64,000 nt of DNA. It comes from an uncultured Eubacteriales bacterium. GTDB taxonomy: Bacteria; Bacillota; Clostridia; Oscillospirales; CAG-272. The notes under the pieces are model-generated. The model did not search any database. It was not told where the DNA came from and worked only from the letters and a program-made list of their open reading frames with translations. This document shows positions 39,892 through 49,532 of this stretch, one piece after another. The first letter of the stretch is position 1, and the number at the start of each line of letters is the position of its first letter. Location: positions 3,533 through 67,532 of the forward strand of contig URHI01000001.1 of assembly GCA_900547565.1 (NCBI GenBank), written 5' to 3'. The position numbers were made by a program, and so were the translations under genes.

Positions 39892-42381
39892 TTATTCGTA
39901 GTTAAGAGTTCCGTTCTGGCTTGCAACGTACTCAGCCCATGCAGCGTCATCATAGTTGAAGCTCATCAGACGTAGGCCGCCGAAGTCATACATGATGTTG
40001 TAGTCCTCGGTGTAGTACTTAACCTGGTAGGAAAGCATGGAGCAAGCGGTGGTGCCGCAGAGCGGGATACGATAGTACAGCTTGAGGTACATTTCCTCGA
40101 GCTGAGCCGTGATGGACAACTTTACATCGAAGCCCGCATTAGCGTACTTACCGTTACCGATAAGGCAGTTAGACCACTCATAGCAAGTCATGGTAACATC
40201 CTCGCCTTTGACCTTGAGAGTCCATTTCGTCGAGGTGGGATCCCAGCAGGCAGCCTCATTGATGTCGTAAGTAACGGGATCCATGTAGACCTGGAAGTTA
40301 CGGAACGGGTAGAAGGCAGCGCCGCCCCATGCGCCGTAACCGATAGCGAACTCGCCCTTCGGAACATCGGCGTAACGGTCGGAAATATTGCCGATAGCCT
40401 CAAAGGTCACCTTGCCGAAGCCGGAGCCTTCGATAGCAGCGTTGACAAACTCGTTGAGCAGTGTGACCTGCTTCTGGTCAGCGGAATCAAGCGCACCCTT
40501 CTTCCAGCCTATACGGATCTTGATCTCTTCACCGGCTTTGTACAGACCGTCTTTAACAAGCTGTTCGCAAGCAGCCTTCATCAGAGCCTTTGCCTCAGTG
40601 AGGTTGTAACCGTTGATGGAATCATATGCTTCCTTAAGAGTAGCATAAGCCTTGCCTGCACCGTATTCAACACCGTAAAGGTTGCAGACAGCCTGCATAG
40701 CCTCGTCGGAGTTACGGTAAGAGGAGGTAGGATCGTTGTAAACATCGTAGAAGTACAGATTGTTCATCAGCGCATATGCGGGCTTGTAGCCGGCGGTAGC
40801 GGTGACGTACTTAGCTCTGTCGATACTGAGCGACATAGCCTTACGGAAATCTGTGCTGGAAAGAACAACAGAGTTGGTGTTGCCCTTGGAGGTATCCATA
40901 GCCTTGAGCGCTTCAACATTGGTGTTGAAGAAGAAGGACTGTGTATAGGTTTCGTCAACCTTGTACAGCTGGTCGGAGGTAGAGTAGGTCAACAGATCGT
41001 CGGCAGAAGGCGTCCACTCGGTCAGCTCGCCCTTCATGAAGGCCAGCTTAGCGGCCTCGTCCTTCATGACGTCAATGACTATCTTGGTTGCCTGATACTG
41101 CTGACGCTTTTCACCGTCAACCTCAAAGTTTGTGTAGGAAATGAGAGAGCCGTCTTTCTGCTTCTCAAAGCCGTACCAGTTTTCGTTCTGGACAAAGACC
41201 ATCTGCTTGTCTTTTTCAAGAGACTCAATCTTGTAGACGCCATAGGACATGGTAGTCTCGGGAGAAGTACCGTAGTTGGTGGTAACCAGCTCACCGGTCG
41301 TATCCTTGCCGGCCTCGTACAGATCCTTGTAAACAAGCCATGTGGAGGTGCAGGAGGTGAGGAAGTAGTTCAGCTCGATGCTGGTCTGGCAGACGTAACG
41401 AATGGTGTAGTCGTCAACCTTGTAGCAACCGACGTTGCCGTCGTACTCAACCTTTTCACCGACCTTGCCGGTATTTATAAACAGAGCTTCCTTAAGAACA
41501 TTCGCCTGCTCAGTTGCATCGGTAATACCGAACAGATTTGCCAGCAGGTCATTGACCAGCTTTATGGCAGTATCCTTGTTCTCGGCTGTGAGCTTGGTGT
41601 AGCCATAAACGTTGGCAGCATCACCGATAGCCTTGTAATCGGCATCGTCACCTACACCGTAGGTGGAGTGCAACTCGTTGAGGCTCATGCTGTAAAGAGT
41701 AATGTCAGAGCTGGACAGGTTGATATAGACCTCGCCCTTGGCGATACCGGCTTCGAGATCATAGGAGTAATCAGGTGTATCTTTTTCACCGTAAGCGGGA
41801 ACCATCGGCTCGTAAATAGGAGCCTCGGAGTTGTAGTATGCGAGACCGCCTGCAACGGCAGACTCACCGCCCCAATAGAGGTTCGAACGGTAGTTTCTCA
41901 TCTTGGAGTCGAGCAACTGCTGCATGGAGTAGATATAGTCGTCAGCGGTGATCTTGACGCCATTTTCCCACATTGCATTGGGATTCAGCTTGATTTCGAA
42001 AACATAACCGGAATCAACGGAATCAACAGTTACGCCCTCGGGAAGAGTGACCTTATACTTGGTCAGATCATCCTTGTGATCCTTGGTAACGTCGGTGATG
42101 GAGGTAGCCATCTCGTATACCCACTGATACACGCCGTTCTCAGAGTCCAGAATTGACATCGTGCAGAACGGGGATGAGAGGTAGCCGAGGATAGCATCAT
42201 CAGCATTGGTTTCCCAGGTGTGAGGGTTCCAGTTGTTACCCAGGGCAGTGGAATAAGATTTGTAAGTGTAGGATTTCGCGTTAGCCTTAGTGTTTTTGCA
42301 GCTGGAGAAAAGAACTGCCATAGACAACAGCATGCAAACGGCCAGAGCTATACTGAGAATCCTTCTCATTGTCTTACTCAT
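39892..42381 (-). CDS. oppA: Family-5 (OppA-like) solute-binding lipoprotein, unusually large (829 aa)
   Basis: The signal peptide ends in LFSSC. It is the first gene of the opp operon. RBS aaggag is present. The call rests mainly on SBP_bac_5-like context. Confidence 0.75.
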   Translation of the reverse strand: MSKTMRRILSIALAVCMLLSMAVLFSSCKNTKANAKSYTYKSYSTALGNNWNPHTWETNADDAILGYLSSPFCTMSILDSENGVYQWVYEMATSITDVTKDHKDDLTKYKVTLPEGVTVDSVDSGYVFEIKLNPNAMWENGVKITADDYIYSMQQLLDSKMRNYRSNLYWGGESAVAGGLAYYNSEAPIYEPMVPAYGEKDTPDYSYDLEAGIAKGEVYINLSSSDITLYSMSLNELHSTYGVGDDADYKAIGDAANVYGYTKLTAENKDTAIKLVNDLLANLFGITDATEQANVLKEALFINTGKVGEKVEYDGNVGCYKVDDYTIRYVCQTSIELNYFLTSCTSTWLVYKDLYEAGKDTTGELVTTNYGTSPETTMSYGVYKIESLEKDKQMVFVQNENWYGFEKQKDGSLISYTNFEVDGEKRQQYQATKIVIDVMKDEAAKLAFMKGELTEWTPSADDLLTYSTSDQLYKVDETYTQSFFFNTNVEALKAMDTSKGNTNSVVLSSTDFRKAMSLSIDRAKYVTATAGYKPAYALMNNLYFYDVYNDPTSSYRNSDEAMQAVCNLYGVEYGAGKAYATLKEAYDSINGYNLTEAKALMKAACEQLVKDGLYKAGEEIKIRIGWKKGALDSADQKQVTLLNEFVNAAIEGSGFGKVTFEAIGNISDRYADVPKGEFAIGYGAWGGAAFYPFRNFQVYMDPVTYDINEAACWDPTSTKWTLKVKGEDVTMTCYEWSNCLIGNGKYANAGFDVKLSITAQLEEMYLKLYYRIPLCGTTACSMLSYQVKYYTEDYNIMYDFGGLRLMSFNYDDAAWAEYVASQNGTLNYE

Positions 42382-42809
42382 GGTTTTGAAATCTCCTTAT
42401 TTAAAAATTTTGTAACTGAATCTAACACAGGCTGTACCCCGGCACGGAACAGGTATCACCGTTCACCCGAACGACACCGATAATTCACCTTATGTTTTGA
42501 TTATTATATCAAAATGTTAATAAGTTGTCAATACTTTATTTAAATTATAAACATATTTATCCAAATAAGAGCATATAAAATGATTTTTTATCAAACCAAA
42601 TTATCATTTTTAGATAAATAGTCAACAATGACAAGTAAAAATGGCGGCTGCACAGCCGTCGGCAACACAAATTCACACGCAGCATAAGGCGATTCGCCTT
42701 TCCCTCCGGCTCACAAAAGCCACCCCGGCATTGCACTGTATATGAGCTTATATATAATTAGGAAGGTATTTGATTCCCGGGCACATATTGCGTCCGAAAC
42801 AAGCCGCCA

Positions 42810-42865
42810 CCACAAGATATAGGCAAAAACGCACAAAAAGCGCCTACAACATCTATATATTGTGT
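42810..42865. promoter_or_regulatory. Two candidate NrdR boxes
   Basis: ccacaagatataggca (42810-42825) matches the remembered consensus acacwatatatwgtgt at 11 of 16 positions. catctatatattgtgt (42850-42865) matches at 13 of 16. The centres are 40 bp apart. Confidence 0.35.
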
Positions 42866-42890: not shown

Positions 42891-42932
42891 TGTGACTTTG
42901 TCACAGAAAAGCAAATTATCTGATGCTATAAT
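42891..42932 (+). promoter_or_regulatory. nrdGD promoter: perfect palindrome TGTGAC-ttt-GTCACA plus an extended -10
   Basis: The palindrome is at 42891-42905. TGcTATAAT is at 42924-42932. There is no good -35. The palindrome centre lies about 41 nt upstream of the predicted TSS. Confidence 0.5.
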
Positions 42933-42967
42933 GACACTGCTGAGCTATTTTAGGGGGAGGTGTGCCG

Positions 42968-43666
42968 ATGCAACATACAATAAACGGGCTGGCAAAGCTG
43001 ACACTGCTGGATTTCCCGGGCAAAACGGCTGCAACCGTCTTTCTTGCCGGTTGCAACTTCAGGTGCCCCTTCTGCCATAATGCACCTCTTGTGACCGAGC
43101 TTGAGGGTGCACAGCACATCGGATATGACGAGCTTGAAGCCTTTCTGAAAAAGCGGGCAGGACTGCTGGACGGCATTGCAATAACCGGCGGTGAGCCTAC
43201 GCTGCGTCCGGAGCTTGATGAGCTGCTGAGTCTCATAAAGCGCTACGGCTACGCCACAAAGCTGGACACCAACGGCACAGATCCCGTCCGCCTTGGCCGT
43301 CTGATTGACGACGGACTGCTGGATTACGTCGCCATGGACATAAAAAATTCGCCCGCGAAATATGCGCTCACGGCCGGACTTGCCGATATCGACATGGACG
43401 CCATAAACGAAAGTATATCGCTGTTGCGCGGCGGCAGCGTGGAGCACGAATTCCGCACAACTGTGGTGTGCGGCCTGCACACGCCTGACGACATGGAACA
43501 GATAGGGCGCTGGCTGAGCGGTGAAACACGGTATTTTCTGCAGAATTTTGTTGATTCGGGAGCGCTCATCGTGCCGGGCACCAAAGGCGTCTCTCACGAT
43601 GAAATGCGGAAGTATCTTGAGATAGTCCGCAGGTATATCCCAACTGCAGAATTGCGCGGAATGTGA
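42968..43666 (+). CDS. nrdG: Anaerobic ribonucleoside-triphosphate reductase activating protein (radical SAM)
   Basis: CNFRCPFCHN cluster motif followed by GIAITGGEPTL. RBS gggggagg lies 7 nt before the ATG at 42968. Confidence 0.88.
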   Translation: MQHTINGLAKLTLLDFPGKTAATVFLAGCNFRCPFCHNAPLVTELEGAQHIGYDELEAFLKKRAGLLDGIAITGGEPTLRPELDELLSLIKRYGYATKLDTNGTDPVRLGRLIDDGLLDYVAMDIKNSPAKYALTAGLADIDMDAINESISLLRGGSVEHEFRTTVVCGLHTPDDMEQIGRWLSGETRYFLQNFVDSGALIVPGTKGVSHDEMRKYLEIVRRYIPTAELRGM

Positions 43667-43705
43667 AAAAATTATTAATATAATGACATATCGGAGGAAA
43701 AACTA

Positions 43706-46096
43706 ATGTACAGAGTCGTAAAAAGAGACGGCAAGATCGCAGACTTCAACATAGAGAAGATCAGCGAAGCCATTACCAAGGCGTTCGATGCCACCCAGAA
43801 GCCCTATACCCCCAACATCATTGACTTTCTCGCTCTTAAAGTAACCGCCGATTTTGCCCCTAAGGTAAAGGACGAGTTAATCGCTGTCGAGGACATTCAG
43901 GACAGCGTTGAGGAGGTCCTGAGTCAGGCGGGCTACGGCGATGTGGCAAAGGCCTATATTCTTTACCGCCGCAACCGCGAAAAGCTGCGTACCATGAGTA
44001 ACACAATACTTGACTACAAAAACGTCGTCGACAGCTACCTCAAGGCCGCAGACTGGCGCGTCAAGGAAAACTCCACCGTCACCTACTCGGTCGGCGGACT
44101 TATTCTCTCCAACTCGGGTGCAATCACCGCCAACTACTGGCTCAGCGAGGTGTACGACGATGAAATCGCCAACGCTCACCGCTCGGCCGATATCCATATT
44201 CACGACCTGTCCATGCTGACCGGTTACTGTGCCGGCTGGAGTCTGAAGCAGCTGATACAGGAGGGGCTCGGCGGAATTCCCGGCAAGATCTCGTCCTCTC
44301 CCGCCGCACATCTGTCCACGCTGTGCAATCAGATGGTCAACTTTCTCGGAATCATGCAGAATGAGTGGGCCGGTGCTCAGGCCTTCTCGTCGTTTGACAC
44401 CTATCTTGCCCCCTTCGTCAAGGTGGATAACCTGACCTACAAGGAAGTCAAGCAGTGCATACAGTCGTTTGTGTACGGTGTCAACACTCCGTCACGTTGG
44501 GGTACTCAGGCTCCCTTCACCAACATCACACTGGACTGGACGGTCCCGGCAGATCTCGCAGACCTCAACTGCATTGTCGGAGGCAAGGAATGTAACTTCA
44601 AATACCGTGACTGTGTGGCAGAGATGGCCATGGTCAACAAAGCATTCATCGAGATCATGATCGAGGGAGACGCCAACGGACGCGGCTTCCAGTACCCCAT
44701 TCCCACCTACTCGATCACGCGCAACTTCGACTGGTCGGAGACCGAAAACAACAAACTGCTGTTTGAAATGACCGCCAAGTACGGTACGCCCTATTTCTCA
44801 AACTATATCAACTCGGATATGGAGCCTTCGGACGTGCGTTCGATGTGCTGCCGCTTGCGGCTTGACCTGCGCGAACTGCGCAAAAAATCCGGCGGCTTCT
44901 TCGGCTCAGGCGAATCAACCGGTTCTATCGGTGTGGTTACTATCAATATGCCGCGTCTTGCATACCTTGCAGAAGACGAGGCTGACTTCTACCGCCGCCT
45001 TGACCGCATGATGGACATTTCGGCACGTTCGCTTAAGGTCAAGAGAACGGTCATTACACGTCTGCTTGAAGCCGGACTGTACCCCTACACCCGCCGCTAT
45101 CTCGGCAAATTTGACAATCACTTCTCAACCATCGGCCTTGTCGGCATGAACGAGGCCGGACTGAATGCCAACTGGCTCCGTGCCGATATGACACACAAGG
45201 AAACCCAGGAATTCACCAAAAACGTTCTCAATCACATGAGAGAGCGCCTGTCTGATTACCAGGAGAAATACGGTGACCTGTACAACCTCGAGGCCACTCC
45301 CGCCGAGTCAACATCATACCGCCTTGCCAAGCACGATGTTGCAAAATATCCCGACATCATCACCGCAGCACAGAACGGCGGAACACCCTATTATACCAAC
45401 AGCTCGCACCTCCCTGTCAGCTTTACCTCTGATATTTTCGAGGCTTTGGATATACAGGACGAGCTTCAGACACTGTACACCTCGGGCACAGTTTTCCACG
45501 CCTTCCTCGGTGAGAAGCTGCCTGACTGGCGCGCTGCAGCAAATCTTGTCCGTAAAATTGCCGAAAACTACAAGCTGCCCTACTACACACTTTCACCCAC
45601 ATATTCGGTCTGCCGGAACCACGGCTATCTGCCGGGTGAGCAGTTCAAGTGCCCCGAGTGCGGCTCCGAGGCTGAGGTCTACAGCCGCATAACCGGATAT
45701 TATCGTCCCGTACAGAACTGGAACAGCGGAAAAGCGCAGGAGTATAAGGAAAGACGCGTGTACGATCCTGCAGCATCCGCGCTGCACACCAACCAAGTGG
45801 CGGCCGAAGCTGTTCACGAAATGCAGGAGGGTTGCTGCTGTGGGCATCACCAGACAGGACACCGCGTGATACTTTTTGCGACAAAAACCTGCCCCAACTG
45901 CAAAATAGCCGCTGCCAAGCTGGACAAGGCCGGGCTGGCATATGAAAAGATATATGCCGATGAAAATCCCGAGGCCGCAACGCAGTTCGGTATCCGTCAG
46001 GCGCCCACGATCGTGGTTGTGGAAGGCGACAGTATCGAAAAATTCGCAGGTCCCGGTCCGGTTCAGAGATTCATAGACGAGGCCGTCAAGGCCTGA
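43706..46096 (+). CDS. nrdD: Class III anaerobic ribonucleoside-triphosphate reductase with a fused C-terminal glutaredoxin/NrdH-like domain
   Basis: An ATP-cone N-terminus, the finger-loop region RSMCCRLRL, the Zn-ribbon CPECG and the glycyl-radical motif SRITGYYRPV. A linker EGCCCGHHQTG follows, then VILFATKTCPNCKIAAAKL...QAPTIVV (Trx fold, CxxC). Confidence 0.9.
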   Translation: MYRVVKRDGKIADFNIEKISEAITKAFDATQKPYTPNIIDFLALKVTADFAPKVKDELIAVEDIQDSVEEVLSQAGYGDVAKAYILYRRNREKLRTMSNTILDYKNVVDSYLKAADWRVKENSTVTYSVGGLILSNSGAITANYWLSEVYDDEIANAHRSADIHIHDLSMLTGYCAGWSLKQLIQEGLGGIPGKISSSPAAHLSTLCNQMVNFLGIMQNEWAGAQAFSSFDTYLAPFVKVDNLTYKEVKQCIQSFVYGVNTPSRWGTQAPFTNITLDWTVPADLADLNCIVGGKECNFKYRDCVAEMAMVNKAFIEIMIEGDANGRGFQYPIPTYSITRNFDWSETENNKLLFEMTAKYGTPYFSNYINSDMEPSDVRSMCCRLRLDLRELRKKSGGFFGSGESTGSIGVVTINMPRLAYLAEDEADFYRRLDRMMDISARSLKVKRTVITRLLEAGLYPYTRRYLGKFDNHFSTIGLVGMNEAGLNANWLRADMTHKETQEFTKNVLNHMRERLSDYQEKYGDLYNLEATPAESTSYRLAKHDVAKYPDIITAAQNGGTPYYTNSSHLPVSFTSDIFEALDIQDELQTLYTSGTVFHAFLGEKLPDWRAAANLVRKIAENYKLPYYTLSPTYSVCRNHGYLPGEQFKCPECGSEAEVYSRITGYYRPVQNWNSGKAQEYKERRVYDPAASALHTNQVAAEAVHEMQEGCCCGHHQTGHRVILFATKTCPNCKIAAAKLDKAGLAYEKIYADENPEAATQFGIRQAPTIVVVEGDSIEKFAGPGPVQRFIDEAVKA

Positions 46097-46259
46097 ACGA
46101 GATGCTCCGAACAGGCATCATTAAGTCGTAGCAGAATTCACTGTCCGAAATATAATGGCCTCGGCGGCCTTACATAACAACACACAGCCGGGGACTGTCG
46201 TCCGGCGCACAATGCGCCAAAATCGCAGCAGCCCCCGGTCATTGCATGAGGATATTATA

Positions 46260-47165
46260 ATGTATGATATAATTGTAATCGGCGGTGGCCCTGCCGGGCT
46301 GACCTCCGCACTTTACGCACTCCGTGCAGGCAAGCGGGTGCTAATAGTCGAACGCAGTGCCTTCGGCGGCCAGATGACCTACTCACCTAAAATTGAAAAC
46401 TACCCCGGCATCGCGTCGGCCAGCGGAAGTGAGATAGCAGACGCAATGGTAGACCAGGTATTAGGTCAGGGGGCGGACACCGAGTTTGACAACATTACCG
46501 GTATCCGTCGCGCGGATGACGGTAGCTTCACCGTTACCGGGGAGGGCGCCTCATATACCGGCCGTACGGTTATTATTTCGGTTGGGTGTCGTCACCGCCG
46601 TCTGGGACTTGACCGTGAGGAGGAGTTTATCGGTGACGGTATATCCTTCTGCGCCGTCTGTGACGGAGCGTTTTACAAGGACAAAACCGTAGCGCTCATC
46701 GGCGGCGGCAATTCGGCGCTTCAGGAGGCCATACTGCTGTCTGAAACCAGCCGAAAAGTCATCATCGTTCAGAATCTTGACTTTCTCACGGGCGAAGCCA
46801 GGCTGGCCGAACAGGTCAAAGCCCGGCCTAACATCGAAATAATATATGGCCACACGGCCGATTCACTCATTGCCGACACATCGCTGACCGGGTTGCGAAT
46901 AAAGTCGGAGTCAGGGCAAACACGCGAGCTAACAGTTGACGGAATATTCGTGGCCATAGGCCTTCAGCCTGAAAACGAACCCTTCGCCGGCCTTGCCGCG
47001 CTCAACGATTACGGATATTTTGACTCAGCCGAAGACTGTCTTACATCAACGCCGGGACTGTTTGTCGCGGGTGACTGCCGCTCAAAGCGCATACGTCAGG
47101 TCACGACAGCAACGGCCGACGGTGCCGTAGCCGCTCTTGCCGCCTGCCGGTATCTGGATAATTGA
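46260..47165 (+). CDS. trxB: Thioredoxin-disulfide reductase
   Basis: MYDIIVIGGGPAGLTSALYA, the redox motif CAVCDG and GGGNSALQEA. RBS gagga precedes the ATG at 46260. Confidence 0.88.
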   Translation: MYDIIVIGGGPAGLTSALYALRAGKRVLIVERSAFGGQMTYSPKIENYPGIASASGSEIADAMVDQVLGQGADTEFDNITGIRRADDGSFTVTGEGASYTGRTVIISVGCRHRRLGLDREEEFIGDGISFCAVCDGAFYKDKTVALIGGGNSALQEAILLSETSRKVIIVQNLDFLTGEARLAEQVKARPNIEIIYGHTADSLIADTSLTGLRIKSESGQTRELTVDGIFVAIGLQPENEPFAGLAALNDYGYFDSAEDCLTSTPGLFVAGDCRSKRIRQVTTATADGAVAALAACRYLDN

Positions 47166-47177
47166 GCTACTATATAA

Positions 47178-47217
47178 AAAATTCCTGCAGGGATACACCT
47201 GCAGGAATTTTTATTTT
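47178..47217 (+). terminator. Rho-independent terminator
   Basis: Stem aaaattcctgcagg / cctgcaggaatttt followed by a T-run. Confidence 0.8.
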
Positions 47218-47304
47218 CTGACCGGCAATGTGTCGATCAGGCAGTTCGTACATCTCGTACACTCAGTACTCATTTGTGTATTGGCTGTCCATATCGCTTC
47301 GACA

Positions 47305-48465
47305 CTACCTGAAATAGCGGATTGCACGGTGATTATCACGTATCAGTGTGAATATCTGACGCAGTGAGTGGGTAGAACAAAAGTGTACAAAGTCATCAAG
47401 TCCGTACGGCGACGGAACCGAAGCATACATTCTGCTCATAAGATCAGCCATACGGTAACTTATATCCGACAGCTGGCCGTCCAACTCCTCAATATAAGCC
47501 TCAAGCGAATCATAGCCCGCAATTTCGGCAAGCAACTTCTCATAAGCGCTGTATTTTTCAGAATACAGTCCATCAAACCCGGTAATGTGAAAGCCGTACT
47601 CAGAGTGGGCGTCACGAAACCATTCAAGACAGATGCGCAGCTTTTGGAGAGAACAATCCAGCGCGTCATCGGCAGCCTCGTCTGTGACGCGACGCGTTGT
47701 AACCACCATAGCCCCGCCGTCAAGTCCCGCATAATACACTGACTCCTGAACCTTTGACTTGTTATTCTGAAGCGTTGCAGAACCGCAAAAAAACATACCG
47801 TGCCACCATTTTCCGGTATAGCGATACGACTGGAGCTCAGGCTGAAAGCCTTGAATTACAATACGTATTCCCTGCTCTGCAAGCACCTGCAGGCAGAGCT
47901 CTGCGGCGTCGGCCTGCTCAAGATAATAAACCTGCGGCGGTGCAAAGCCTTGCTGAGCAAGACTGAATTTCACATCGGTTATGTACCGCCTAAAATTCCC
48001 TGCTGCACTTTCATCTGACAGATCAGCTCCCCCGTCACCGCCAAGCACCACGCGCCAACCGGCAGAAATCAGTTTGCCGTAATCGGACAGAGACAGTCCT
48101 CCGGACGTCCCCGGCAGAGTATCTCCCGTAACCATAAATGAACCCGTATATCCGAACTGTTTTATCAGCGGATAGGCGTTTTGCATGAGCGCACTGTCGG
48201 GCTGACGCAAAAGCAAAGTCACCGCAGCGCGACCGCTTGAGCGGTCGGCCGCCAGATTTTTTATATTGTTGCGCAGGCCGAGCAGCTGAAATGATTCTTT
48301 ATAATATAAACGCATCTGTCCATTTTCCGAATTAAGACATTCATACATTTCAGCCAGCCGACACTCGCCCACAAACAGCAAAAAAGCGACAACGAACGCC
48401 ATAAGCACGCATATCGTAATACATGCGCGTCTGACCTGTATTAAATTGTCTCTTTTTGTTTTCAT
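47305..48465 (-). CDS. Membrane-anchored hypothetical protein (degenerate polysaccharide-deacetylase-like region)
   Basis: An N-terminal TM helix (ITICVLMAFVVAFLLFV) is followed by AVTLLLRQPDS...YPLIKQFGYTGSFMVTG. This resembles the NodB layout but lacks the DD catalytic motif. Confidence 0.5.
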   Translation of the reverse strand: MKTKRDNLIQVRRACITICVLMAFVVAFLLFVGECRLAEMYECLNSENGQMRLYYKESFQLLGLRNNIKNLAADRSSGRAAVTLLLRQPDSALMQNAYPLIKQFGYTGSFMVTGDTLPGTSGGLSLSDYGKLISAGWRVVLGGDGGADLSDESAAGNFRRYITDVKFSLAQQGFAPPQVYYLEQADAAELCLQVLAEQGIRIVIQGFQPELQSYRYTGKWWHGMFFCGSATLQNNKSKVQESVYYAGLDGGAMVVTTRRVTDEAADDALDCSLQKLRICLEWFRDAHSEYGFHITGFDGLYSEKYSAYEKLLAEIAGYDSLEAYIEELDGQLSDISYRMADLMSRMYASVPSPYGLDDFVHFCSTHSLRQIFTLIRDNHRAIRYFR

Positions 48466-48481
48466 GAGCATTCCTGAAATA

Positions 48482-49438
48482 TTAATATTGTTTTGATCTA
48501 TTTCCCGGGTATACACCTGTAAGGTCAAATATCGGGGTAAAGCCGGCGCTGTCCGAGCCACTCTGCTGGCAATAGCCATCAAAGCCTAACCTGTCCGCCA
48601 CATCAACTACAGACCTGTACTCAAACGTAGTCAGCCGCCGGCCAAGCTCCGGGTATCGATCCCGATCGACAAAATCGGGCGTATACTGCCGCATAAGGCT
48701 CAGGCGTATATTGCCGACCGGGACCGCTTCCGCCAGCAGCCTGAGCACCCTCTCCGAGTCGTGCCGACACCCCGGCAGAACAAGATGACGAACCATTACC
48801 CCTCGCTTCATCATTCCGTCGTCGTCAAAACCGACCGGTCCGCACTGGCGGTACATCTCACAAATGGCATCATATGCGCGTTCCGGATAATCCGGTGCAC
48901 CGGAATAGCGCCTGGCAAGCTCCGCTGACGCATACTTGAAATCAGGCAGGTAAATGTCTATCAGTCCATCGAGCATGCGGAGCGTTTCTACGCTTTCATA
49001 ACCCCCGCAGTTGTATATGACGGGAATTTTCAGCCGCGGACGCACGCAAGTCAGCACACGGGCAAGTGCTTCTGAATATTGCGTAGGTGTTACAAGGTCA
49101 ATATTGTGTACTCCTGTATCCTGAAGCTCTAAAAAAATTTCGCCCAACCGTTGCTCGCTTACGACCGCACCGAAGCCTTCTCTGCTGAGCCGGCGGTTCT
49201 GACAGAAAACGCACCCCAGCGGACACCCTGCAAAAAACACAGCTCCCGCACCGCTACGGCCGCTGATACACGGTTCCTCCCACATGTGAGGAGCAGCACG
49301 TGCGACCACAATATCAGCATCCATACCGCACCGGCCGCACTGTCCGGCAGCTCTGTCCGCCCCGCATCCGCGCGGGCACAGTTTGCAGCCATCTGATTTC
49401 AACCTCAACACCTCTCTTACACCGATATTATACACCAT
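48482..49438 (-). CDS. Radical SAM protein, PflX-like (PFL-activase homolog)
   Basis: The N-terminus has CKLCPRGCGADR...GQCG, then the CPLGCVFCQN radical SAM motif. The start is uncertain: ATG at 49438 or TTG at 49468. Confidence 0.8.
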   Translation of the reverse strand: MVYNIGVREVLRLKSDGCKLCPRGCGADRAAGQCGRCGMDADIVVARAAPHMWEEPCISGRSGAGAVFFAGCPLGCVFCQNRRLSREGFGAVVSEQRLGEIFLELQDTGVHNIDLVTPTQYSEALARVLTCVRPRLKIPVIYNCGGYESVETLRMLDGLIDIYLPDFKYASAELARRYSGAPDYPERAYDAICEMYRQCGPVGFDDDGMMKRGVMVRHLVLPGCRHDSERVLRLLAEAVPVGNIRLSLMRQYTPDFVDRDRYPELGRRLTTFEYRSVVDVADRLGFDGYCQQSGSDSAGFTPIFDLTGVYPGNRSKQY

Positions 49439-49532
49439 CGCCACACGATATGCAAGTAAAATTACCAATCCGCTTTACAATCAGCCACTTTTTTGATATA
49501 ATTACATATGAAAAAACACAAGAGGTGATATC

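Follow-up and report, generated by a model that had tools for sequence, protein, structure and literature searches.

What reduces a class III ribonucleotide reductase (RNR) that carries a redoxin domain at its own C terminus? The question is raised by a 64,000-nucleotide stretch of DNA (hereafter the window) from an uncultured Eubacteriales bacterium of the CAG-272 lineage (assembly GCA_900547565.1, contig URHI01000001.1, positions 3,533 to 67,532, forward strand). Its + strand holds, between 42968 and 47222, three co-directional genes in the order nrdG, nrdD fused to a thioredoxin-fold domain, and a trxB-like gene. We suggest, with a probability of about 70%, that they constitute a self-contained, thiol-driven class III RNR operon, in which electrons would pass from the FAD and CAVC disulfide of the reductase through the tethered CPNC domain to a C175/C381 disulfide in the NrdD active site.

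The fusion gene is a single uninterrupted open reading frame (ORF; 43706–46096, stop codon included; this and all features below lie on the + strand unless noted) encoding 796 amino acids (aa). An ATP-cone, the allosteric activity domain (aa 3–92, 43712–43981; PF03477, 76.4 bits), precedes the NRDD domain (PF13597), which spans aa 121–686 with 631 bits and covers the full 562-position model; TIGR02487 (512 bits, cut-off 326) and NF006126 (1126 bits over aa 2–687, cut-off 548) are matched as well. Within the PF13597 match lies the glycyl-radical motif RITGY (aa 661–665, 45686–45700; G664 at 45695–45697), read as SRITGYY at 45683–45703. C636, H639, C649 and C652 (45611–45661), each invariant in 44 of 44 homologues, form a putative Zn site of the glycyl-radical domain, and their position fits the Zn ribbon of class III RNRs. 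Judged by its domains, its RxxGY motif, the putative Zn site and the adjacent activase gene, the protein is a class III RNR NrdD. A first-pass annotation of this DNA had described a complete NrdD with a redoxin fused in frame; the one ORF and its Pfam domains bear this out, and every motif was found where that annotation had placed it or no more than 2 nt away.

The annotation had also raised the possibility that a stop codon in fact separates nrdD from an independent nrdH-like gene. A scan of species-representative genomes returned at least 598 stretches with NrdD relatives, and the locus counts given here refer to the best 80 of them (75–80% identity). The frame is open through the C-terminal redoxin in 80 of these 80 genomes, the products being 780–813 aa long, and the protein of the window recurs unchanged on seven contigs, which come from independent assemblies at NCBI and ENA. 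Since the identical protein recurs and the frame is open in all 80 relatives, the fusion is no assembly or sequencing error, and read-through of a missed stop codon is ruled out. Two of the deposited copies, MDD7675920.1 and MDY4898682.1, are named ‘ribonucleoside triphosphate reductase [Eubacteriales bacterium]’. The best 120 protein clusters of a 5.8-billion-sequence collection likewise all carry the fusion, at about 790 aa and 99–100% coverage. Judged by the databases, the architecture is nothing unusual: among close relatives it is the norm.

Active-site equivalences were taken from a HMMER alignment to Thermotoga maritima NrdD (4coi). C175, the beta-A active-site Cys (44228–44230; invariant in 44/44 homologues), corresponds to T. 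maritima C125, and the finger loop M380-C381-C382-R383 (44843–44854), of the double-Cys ‘MCCR’ type, corresponds to S328-C329-C330-R331. E529 (45290–45292), the putative proton donor, aligns with E495, the reference residue for the proton-donor Glu in the study that describes the finger-loop motif classes (PMC9669993). The RSMCCRL motif is present in 81 of 81 sequences (the window and 80 relatives), as is [YF]NLEATPAE, which contains E529; C175, M380, C381, C382 and E529 are all invariant across the homologue sets (81/81 and 44/44). NrdD2 enzymes are defined by a third active-site Cys and a Glu (PMC4493059), and thioredoxin use goes along with a double-Cys finger loop (PMC9669993). Because the third Cys and E529 are both present, the window NrdD is by alignment of the NrdD2 type and not NrdD1; of the NrdD1 pattern, a single-Cys MGCR loop with no active-site Glu, it shares only the Met. 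The first-pass annotation had taken two adjacent finger-loop cysteines together with an active-site Glu as signs of the thiol-using subtype and had proposed typing by alignment: the alignment fits the published NrdD2 definition, and a formate-type site was not found. That thiol-dependent typing stands as regards the double Cys and the Glu, and is tempered by the formate-associated Met that MCCR also keeps, with which formate use is still compatible.

The C-terminal domain (aa 719–796, 45860–46093) matches both Glutaredoxin (PF00462, aa 721–771, 27.7 bits, cut-off 22.9) and Thioredoxin (PF00085, aa 719–788, 27.2 bits, cut-off 23.5). It contains a CPNC active site (C729/C732, 45890–45901) and the cis-Pro motif A766-P767-T768 (46001–46009, within QAPTIVV at 45998–46018). 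Across the 80 loci the active site reads CPNC in 74 and CPKC in six, so that CPxC and the cis-Pro are present in every one, and in an alignment of 30 redoxin domains only T-C-P-N-C, one Leu and A-P-T are invariant. An AlphaFold2 (AF2) model of aa 712–796 (predicted local distance difference test score, pLDDT, 92.3) shows a beta-alpha-beta-alpha-beta-beta-alpha topology with only four strands, the N-terminal beta-alpha unit being missing. In a Foldseek search of the PDB this model retrieved thioredoxins at the top (E about 1e-5, template-modelling score 0.65–0.77), including 1f6m_C, the thioredoxin chain of the E. coli thioredoxin reductase (TrxR)–thioredoxin complex. The full-length AF2 model is poor (mean pLDDT 62.6), its input alignment consisting only of sequences about 80% identical to each other, and agrees only in that aa 720–795 are folded and aa 695–717 are of low confidence.

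What kind of redoxin is this? NrdH redoxins have a CVQC active site and a WSGFRP motif; the latter is absent from the domain sequence, whose site is CPNC. Thioredoxins carry a CxxC where helix 1 begins and a cis-Pro loop, and the canonical ones have WCGPC and a five-stranded sheet with an N-terminal beta-alpha unit. Glutathione-dependent glutaredoxins have a CPYC-type site and residues that bind glutathione. The family-specific models score far below their cut-offs for NrdH (TIGR02194, 21.7 bits against 85.75; NF007657, 17.8 against 131), for thioredoxin (TIGR01068, 21.3 against 96.8) and for glutaredoxin (TIGR02181, 19 against 90, while PF00462 barely passes). Since the NrdH, glutaredoxin 3, thioredoxin and other small-redoxin equivalogs are all missed by so much, the domain is best described, from its sequence and predicted fold, as a minimal thioredoxin-like redoxin and not as NrdH or glutaredoxin. 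The ‘glutaredoxin/NrdH-like’ label given to it earlier is thus replaced, the predicted fold being closest to thioredoxins.

Between the NrdD core and the redoxin lies a variable linker (about aa 688–718, 45767–45859) with the Cys/His cluster EGCCCGHHQTGH (45827–45862), which the first-pass annotation had viewed as a possible metal site with a CCC-G-HH pattern. Among 150 distinct linkers no sequence is conserved, and lengths run from 13 to 47 aa, with a median of 29. Cys makes up 5.0% of linker residues against 1.5% of the NrdD core, a 3.3-fold enrichment, and CC, CxC or CxxC clusters (also CGCGC and CCCC) occur in 74 of the 150, typically about 16 residues before CPNC; 53 linkers have no Cys at all. 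EGCCCGHHQTGH recurs only in altered form in the closest relatives, for example as SCGCGCTHHH at 93% identity. A metal-binding linker as a general feature of the family is rejected, CCCGHH being confined to close relatives. No association was found between linker Cys clusters and reductase type (Fisher p = 0.26). A facultative function of these clusters is possible, for example as a shuttle dithiol analogous to the Cys pair at the C terminus of class I and II RNRs; they may also form a metal site or have no role. One 309-aa metagenomic protein fragment (P0128) has the CPNC redoxin domain twice, with repeated DACDGTRILGTAKAEP units in between.

The third gene encodes a 301-aa homologue of low-molecular-weight thioredoxin reductases (46260–47165). 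Its ORF opens at an ATG at 46155, but homologues align only from M36 (46260), and a GAGGA ribosome-binding site lies 7 nt upstream of this second start; homology and ribosome-binding site favour the 301-aa form. The alternative 5' extension amounts to 35 codons (46155–46259), and the resulting 336-aa form is found in many database entries, next to forms of 317–343 aa. With the start at 46260, the gap from the nrdD stop codon is 163 nt, as first annotated. The protein contains the FAD motif GGGPAG (46281–46298), the redox motif CAVC (46650–46661) and the pyrophosphate motif GGGNSALQE (46701–46727). CAVC or CAxC is present in 65 of 65 aligned sequences (the window and 64 neighbour genes) and the closest PDB matches are true TrxRs (4gcm, 221 bits), for which reasons we classify the protein as a disulfide reductase. 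Against 5nii, 6gna and 5j60 it scores 98–142 bits, and against the ferredoxin-NADP reductase (FNR) 5xhu 78 bits.

From which donor would this reductase take its electrons? In NADPH-dependent enzymes the three Arg of the V-x3-HRRDxxR motif bind the 2'-phosphate of the cofactor (PMC5627308). In the window HRRDGFRAE is replaced by QNLDFLTGE (46770–46796): the counterpart of its VIIVQNLDFLT is VTIVHRRDELR in 4gcm and HRRDGFR in E. coli TrxR, and all three Arg are gone. A QNLxx[LF]TGE-like motif occurs in 48 of the 65 aligned sequences (the window and 47 of the 64 neighbours), and GGGNSALQ, VQNLxx[LF]TGE and CA[VI]CDG are found in all of the 120 best database homologues (CAVCDG in 118, CAICDG in two). 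Residues that contact thioredoxin also depart from the canonical ones in this family (GRG to GDG, GNG or GEG; FF to AF). The match to TIGR01292 (302.5 bits) stays under the equivalog cut-off of 343.45, which is why PGAP names the protein only ‘FAD-dependent oxidoreductase’, next to the JGI name ‘thioredoxin reductase (NADPH)’.

Several low-molecular-weight thioredoxin reductases (TRs) do without NADPH: the NADH-preferring T. maritima TR and Desulfovibrio vulgaris TR3, the NAD(P)H-independent D. vulgaris TRi (DvTRi), and the clostridial ferredoxin-dependent flavin thioredoxin reductase (FFTR; PMC5627308; PDB 5nii, 6gna). TR3 enzymes keep GGGxxAxE and alter the 2'-phosphate motif, and TRi enzymes lose both (PMC5627308). 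On the basis of that work and of motif logic, the window reductase resembles these enzymes in having a TrxR fold with CxxC and a replaced HRRDxxR, and it keeps GGGxxAxE, as does NADH-type TR3 and unlike TRi. The degenerate pyrophosphate motif and the TQ/NGK of TRi are both missing from it, and it is nearer to canonical TrxR (221 bits) than to FFTR (110) or DvTRi (98). By motif and score it does not belong with the NAD(P)H-independent TRs (DvTRi, FFTR and DTR). Because the 2'-phosphate Arg are lost and GGGxxAxE is kept, we take it to be a dinucleotide-dependent disulfide reductase that has lost NADPH specificity, with NADH the most likely donor; a non-pyridine donor seems less likely. NADPH, named earlier as the electron source, is thus disfavoured, though not disproven, by the QNLDFLT replacement and the missed TIGR01292 cut-off. 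TrxR homologues with VQNLxx[LF]TGE form a coherent clade (the window sequence, L083–L087 and P0308–P0426), and this motif did not appear in the literature that we consulted on non-NADPH TRs.

The first gene, nrdG, encodes the radical S-adenosylmethionine (SAM) activase of class III RNR (42968–43666, 232 aa from the ATG at 42968; an alternative GTG start lies at 42962). Its product matches TIGR02495, NrdG2 (192 bits, cut-off 131), and PF04055, and has the Cx3Cx2C cluster motif at 43052–43075. The first-pass annotation was silent on nrdG, although the start coordinate that it gave, 42968, is the nrdG ATG. Terminator prediction found no terminator-like site on the + strand between nrdG and the trxB stop codon; 12 nt after that codon, an intrinsic-terminator-like hairpin follows (47177–47222, a 15-bp stem with a T-run).

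Among the relatives, nrdG lies directly upstream of nrdD and in the same direction in 67 of 75 loci, and 62 of the 72 loci with enough flank have a trxB in the same orientation no more than 1.2 kb downstream, most gaps being shorter than 110 nt. The idea of a dedicated electron path, put forward in the first-pass annotation, gains from this conserved disulfide-reductase neighbour. Sampled from the reductase side, three of three homologues on long contigs (61–64% identity) stand directly after nrdG and nrdD (788–801 aa), and the genes beyond differ in each of the three. The three genes behave as a conserved, movable cassette, since the nrdG and trxB neighbourhood recurs while the flanking genes differ. 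Hosts are mostly Clostridia of the gut and rumen known from metagenome-assembled genomes (Oscillospiraceae, Acutalibacteraceae, Ruminococcaceae, Christensenellaceae and Lachnospiraceae); one cultured host among the loci is Anaerocolumna aminovalerica DSM 1283 (L053). A few records bear the labels Bacteroidaceae, Phascolarctobacterium or Lentisphaeria, probably because the bins were misassigned.

What is observed is the architecture of genes and domains, the active-site pattern, a conserved fusion in a conserved neighbourhood and a reductase with a lost motif; from these we infer the electron-transfer steps, the identity of the donor and co-transcription of the genes as follows. NrdG would put the glycyl radical on G664, and the radical would be carried by G664/C382. 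Two reducing equivalents would be supplied by the C175/C381 dithiol, with E529 as proton donor. The thioredoxin-fold domain, which a flexible linker of about 30 aa connects to the end of the glycyl-radical domain, would then use its CPNC dithiol (C729/C732) to reduce the resulting C175–C381 disulfide again. The oxidised redoxin would in turn be recycled by the co-transcribed FAD/CAVC disulfide reductase, drawing most likely on NADH, and the operon would end at a terminator of its own. Of the hard-wired path from NADPH through TrxB and redoxin to NrdD that was first proposed, the fusion and the conserved reductase neighbour are retained and the NADPH step is not.

A number of points weigh against this mechanism. 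M380 is invariant, and a Met in the finger-loop motif is tied to formate-dependent chemistry, so an MCCR enzyme may still be able to use formate. The 163-nt gap before trxB exceeds that of most relatives, and a separate promoter for trxB is possible; in 10 of the 72 related loci the adjacent trxB is missing. The canonical, NADPH-type HRR is found in 17 of the 64 neighbour reductases, and the donor is therefore not uniform across the family. The full-length AF2 model gives no docking information and is unusable for finger-loop conformation. Our literature search returned no biochemical data for the family, and the route by which a redoxin reaches the buried active-site disulfide of NrdD2 is an open question even in characterised enzymes (PMC4493059).

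The first of these points leads to an alternative in which formate is the catalytic reductant, via Met380/Cys175 thiosulfuranyl chemistry as in E. coli NrdD, and the redoxin and reductase are auxiliary; they might keep active-site or Zn-site Cys reduced after oxidative episodes, or gate activity by redox state. In addition to the invariant M380, it can draw on the finding that Met is retained in 83% of double-Cys enzymes, with MCCR enzymes appearing equipped for either reductant (PMC9669993), and on the characterised thioredoxin-only enzymes (N. bacilliformis, T. maritima) being SCCR and not MCCR. Yet E529 and the extra Cys, which are tied to formate-independent reduction, are equally invariant, and a covalent 1:1 redoxin with a dedicated reductase fits a stoichiometric catalytic reductant and seems excessive for occasional repair; we consider formate as the catalytic reductant unlikely. 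We would give little credence to the suggestion that redoxin and reductase are the general thioredoxin system of the cell, or a second copy of it, and serve mainly other targets in trans. Small thioredoxin-fold proteins are promiscuous, and the 17 neighbour genes with a canonical NADPH-type TrxB would suit such a role, but a redoxin anchored to an enzyme of 80 kDa is ill suited to act as a diffusible reductant and the reductase family, when sampled from its own side, lies beside nrdD in three of three cases. The altered thioredoxin-contact residues suggest a specialised partner, and tail-like domains in a search of 1.84 billion proteins seem mostly to be fragments of the same fusions (of two checked, one is clearly a fusion fragment and the other could be either).

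It is also conceivable, if highly improbable, that the TrxR-like flavoprotein feeds NrdG instead of the redoxin, in the manner of YumC/TrxB2-type ferredoxin or flavodoxin reductases, which go under the name of thioredoxin reductase in annotations. In Lactococcus lactis, ribonucleotide reduction involves a flavoprotein annotated as TrxB (PMC4626851). The non-committal PGAP name of the window reductase is compatible with such a function; its redox disulfide CAVC, kept in all 65 aligned sequences, is not what one would expect of it. TrxR-like FNRs are not known to have a redox-active CxxC. TrxRs moreover outscore the FNR 5xhu by 221 to 78 bits, and the operon contains no flavodoxin or ferredoxin gene. 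We therefore retain the thiol-driven operon as our working model.

How does this model compare with systems already known? The nearest characterised counterpart is the NrdD2 of Neisseria bacilliformis, which works with TrxA, TrxB and NADPH (Wei et al. 2014, as summarised in PMC4493059 and PMC9669993). As far as those summaries go, the window enzyme shares with it the double-Cys finger loop, the beta-A Cys and the active-site Glu. In N. bacilliformis the turnover disulfide is reduced by thioredoxin, which is recycled by a flavin TrxR, and the genes of the window point to the same logic. The summarised N. bacilliformis system uses a separate housekeeping thioredoxin and TrxR with an SCCR loop that has no Met, whereas the window has a covalent redoxin and MCCR, and its reductase, in contrast to that of N. 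bacilliformis, is encoded in the operon and has no NADPH 2'-phosphate motif.

For the fusion itself, one precedent is on record: a single ‘Glutaredoxin:NrdD’ in Table S1 of a RefSeq survey, WP_082039398.1 from Lachnospiraceae bacterium TWA4, listed as NrdDd (Rozman Grinberg et al. 2018, PMC6187632). This clostridial protein, compared by its table entry only, combines NrdD with a Pfam glutaredoxin domain and very likely has the same architecture as the window protein, because Lachnospiraceae loci such as that of A. aminovalerica carry the window-type fusion. It is one RefSeq case for which no operon context, reductase or biochemistry is described, whereas the present scan shows it as the rule in at least 80 species representatives. 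Beyond this entry (PMC6187632), our literature search on NrdD–redoxin fusions found no other mention and no biochemistry. A precedent for the logic of a built-in reductant is the glutaredoxin–ATP-cone–NrdB fusion of Facklamia ignava, which acts as an efficient RNR reductant (PMC6187632) and in which a redoxin is likewise fused to an RNR component. The F. ignava enzyme differs in being a class I RNR with an N-terminal fusion on the radical-generating subunit, a true glutathione-dependent glutaredoxin and no flavin reductase in the operon. In Methanosarcina barkeri, too, a class III RNR, NrdD3, is served by dedicated partners, a small NrdH-like redoxin and a ferredoxin:disulfide reductase that does not depend on NADPH (Wei et al. 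2015, cited in PMC9176816 Table 1). NrdD3 has no Glu, a QCCR/A motif, a separate redoxin and an Fe-S ferredoxin:disulfide reductase, which is not a homologue of flavin TrxR. The window system differs from it in each of these respects. The M. barkeri redoxin and reductase reportedly share an operon.

Thioredoxin-dependent class III RNRs are known from one biochemically characterised enzyme, that of N. bacilliformis, and from cell-extract data on T. maritima, both of which are SCCR. Most double-Cys enzymes are MCCR, and their reductant has been explicitly left open (PMC9669993). An MCCR/Glu NrdD that is covalently fused to a redoxin, nearly always with a reductase beside it, offers strong genomic evidence that the MCCR group uses protein thiols. 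The window holds one member of a large, publicly deposited and essentially undescribed family, whose distinctive features are the covalent redoxin on an MCCR/Glu NrdD, the dedicated reductase within the operon and the loss of the NADPH motif in that reductase. The record name ‘ribonucleoside triphosphate reductase’ hides the redoxin fusion, and the cofactor in the JGI name is probably wrong. A built-in redoxin is unsurprising in principle; what it does is make the questions of the MCCR reductant and of redoxin access directly testable. In this family redoxin and NrdD come naturally tethered 1:1, which lends itself to trapping or imaging the step from redoxin to active site, and with A. aminovalerica a cultured source organism exists.

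The lost NADPH motif of the reductase clade further suggests that abundant gut Clostridia couple the synthesis of deoxyribonucleoside triphosphates (dNTPs) to NADH or another donor. In a bolder and rather doubtful version of the model, the cassette would supply electrons for anaerobic dNTP synthesis independently of NADPH, by a chain not characterised before, in which the VQNLxx[LF]TGE clade serves solely to recycle the tethered redoxin via NADH or another donor and the linker Cys act as a shuttle dithiol. If this were true, redoxins would drive class III RNRs of the large MCCR group in vivo, and the family would supply a natural covalent complex showing how a redoxin gains access to the buried active site.

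The operon probably has an NrdR-controlled promoter region of its own. About 100 nt upstream of nrdG lies an NrdR-box-like palindrome, CATCTATATATTGTGT (42850–42865, no strand assigned), which fits 13 of the 16 positions of the consensus ACACWATATATWGTGT, as reportedly defined by Rodionov and Gelfand in 2005; no other site in the 64-kb window matches as well. Of 65 related loci, 34 have boxes with at least 13 of 16 matching positions in the 300 nt before nrdG; none of 455 control windows does. A weaker candidate box is found at 42810–42825, at a spacing of about 40 nt from the first; canonical NrdR boxes are spaced 31–32 nt apart. A consensus promoter scan gave no + strand promoter upstream of nrdG, where TGcTATAAT can be picked out by eye at about 42924–42932. 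An Rfam scan of the whole window gave no matches, hence no known riboswitch or leader upstream of the operon. On the − strand at 42503–42531, a promoter that matches the sigma-70 consensus perfectly (TTGACA, 17 nt, TATAAT preceded by a TG) faces the divergent gene of an Opp-type solute-binding protein (39892–42381).

Searches with the redoxin tail returned many short proteins that might be taken for free-standing forms. A word-indexed search with a 110-aa tail gave seven matches and was too insensitive; an exhaustive HMMER search with a 90-aa tail against 1.84 billion proteins gave 718, mostly of 75–170 aa. Their reading as stand-alone redoxins was dropped: two were checked, on contigs of 564–666 nt, and one of these (L082) has NrdD C-terminal sequence upstream of the redoxin, in frame, and is the fusion itself. 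The other (L081, on a 666-nt contig) is a 75-aa CPNC redoxin with a stop codon 8 codons upstream and a trxB homologue 66 nt downstream; it may be a genuinely split version, on a contig too short to show nrdD upstream. A close relative of the fusion (P0011, 950 aa) has about 150 extra internal residues between normal-looking terminal regions, which could be an insertion, perhaps an intein, or a gene-calling artefact.

The genes that flank the operon in the window are unrelated to RNR. Upstream, on the opposite strand, is the Opp-type ABC transporter. Downstream and convergent with the operon, a gene for a hypothetical protein precedes one for a radical-SAM protein, and cinA comes next. The hypothetical protein (425 aa, 47305–48582) has no Pfam match and lies between the operon and the radical-SAM gene. 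The radical-SAM protein (328 aa, 48482–49468, − strand; PF04055, 32 bits) is encoded about 1.3 kb downstream of the operon, and no link to RNR was seen for it.

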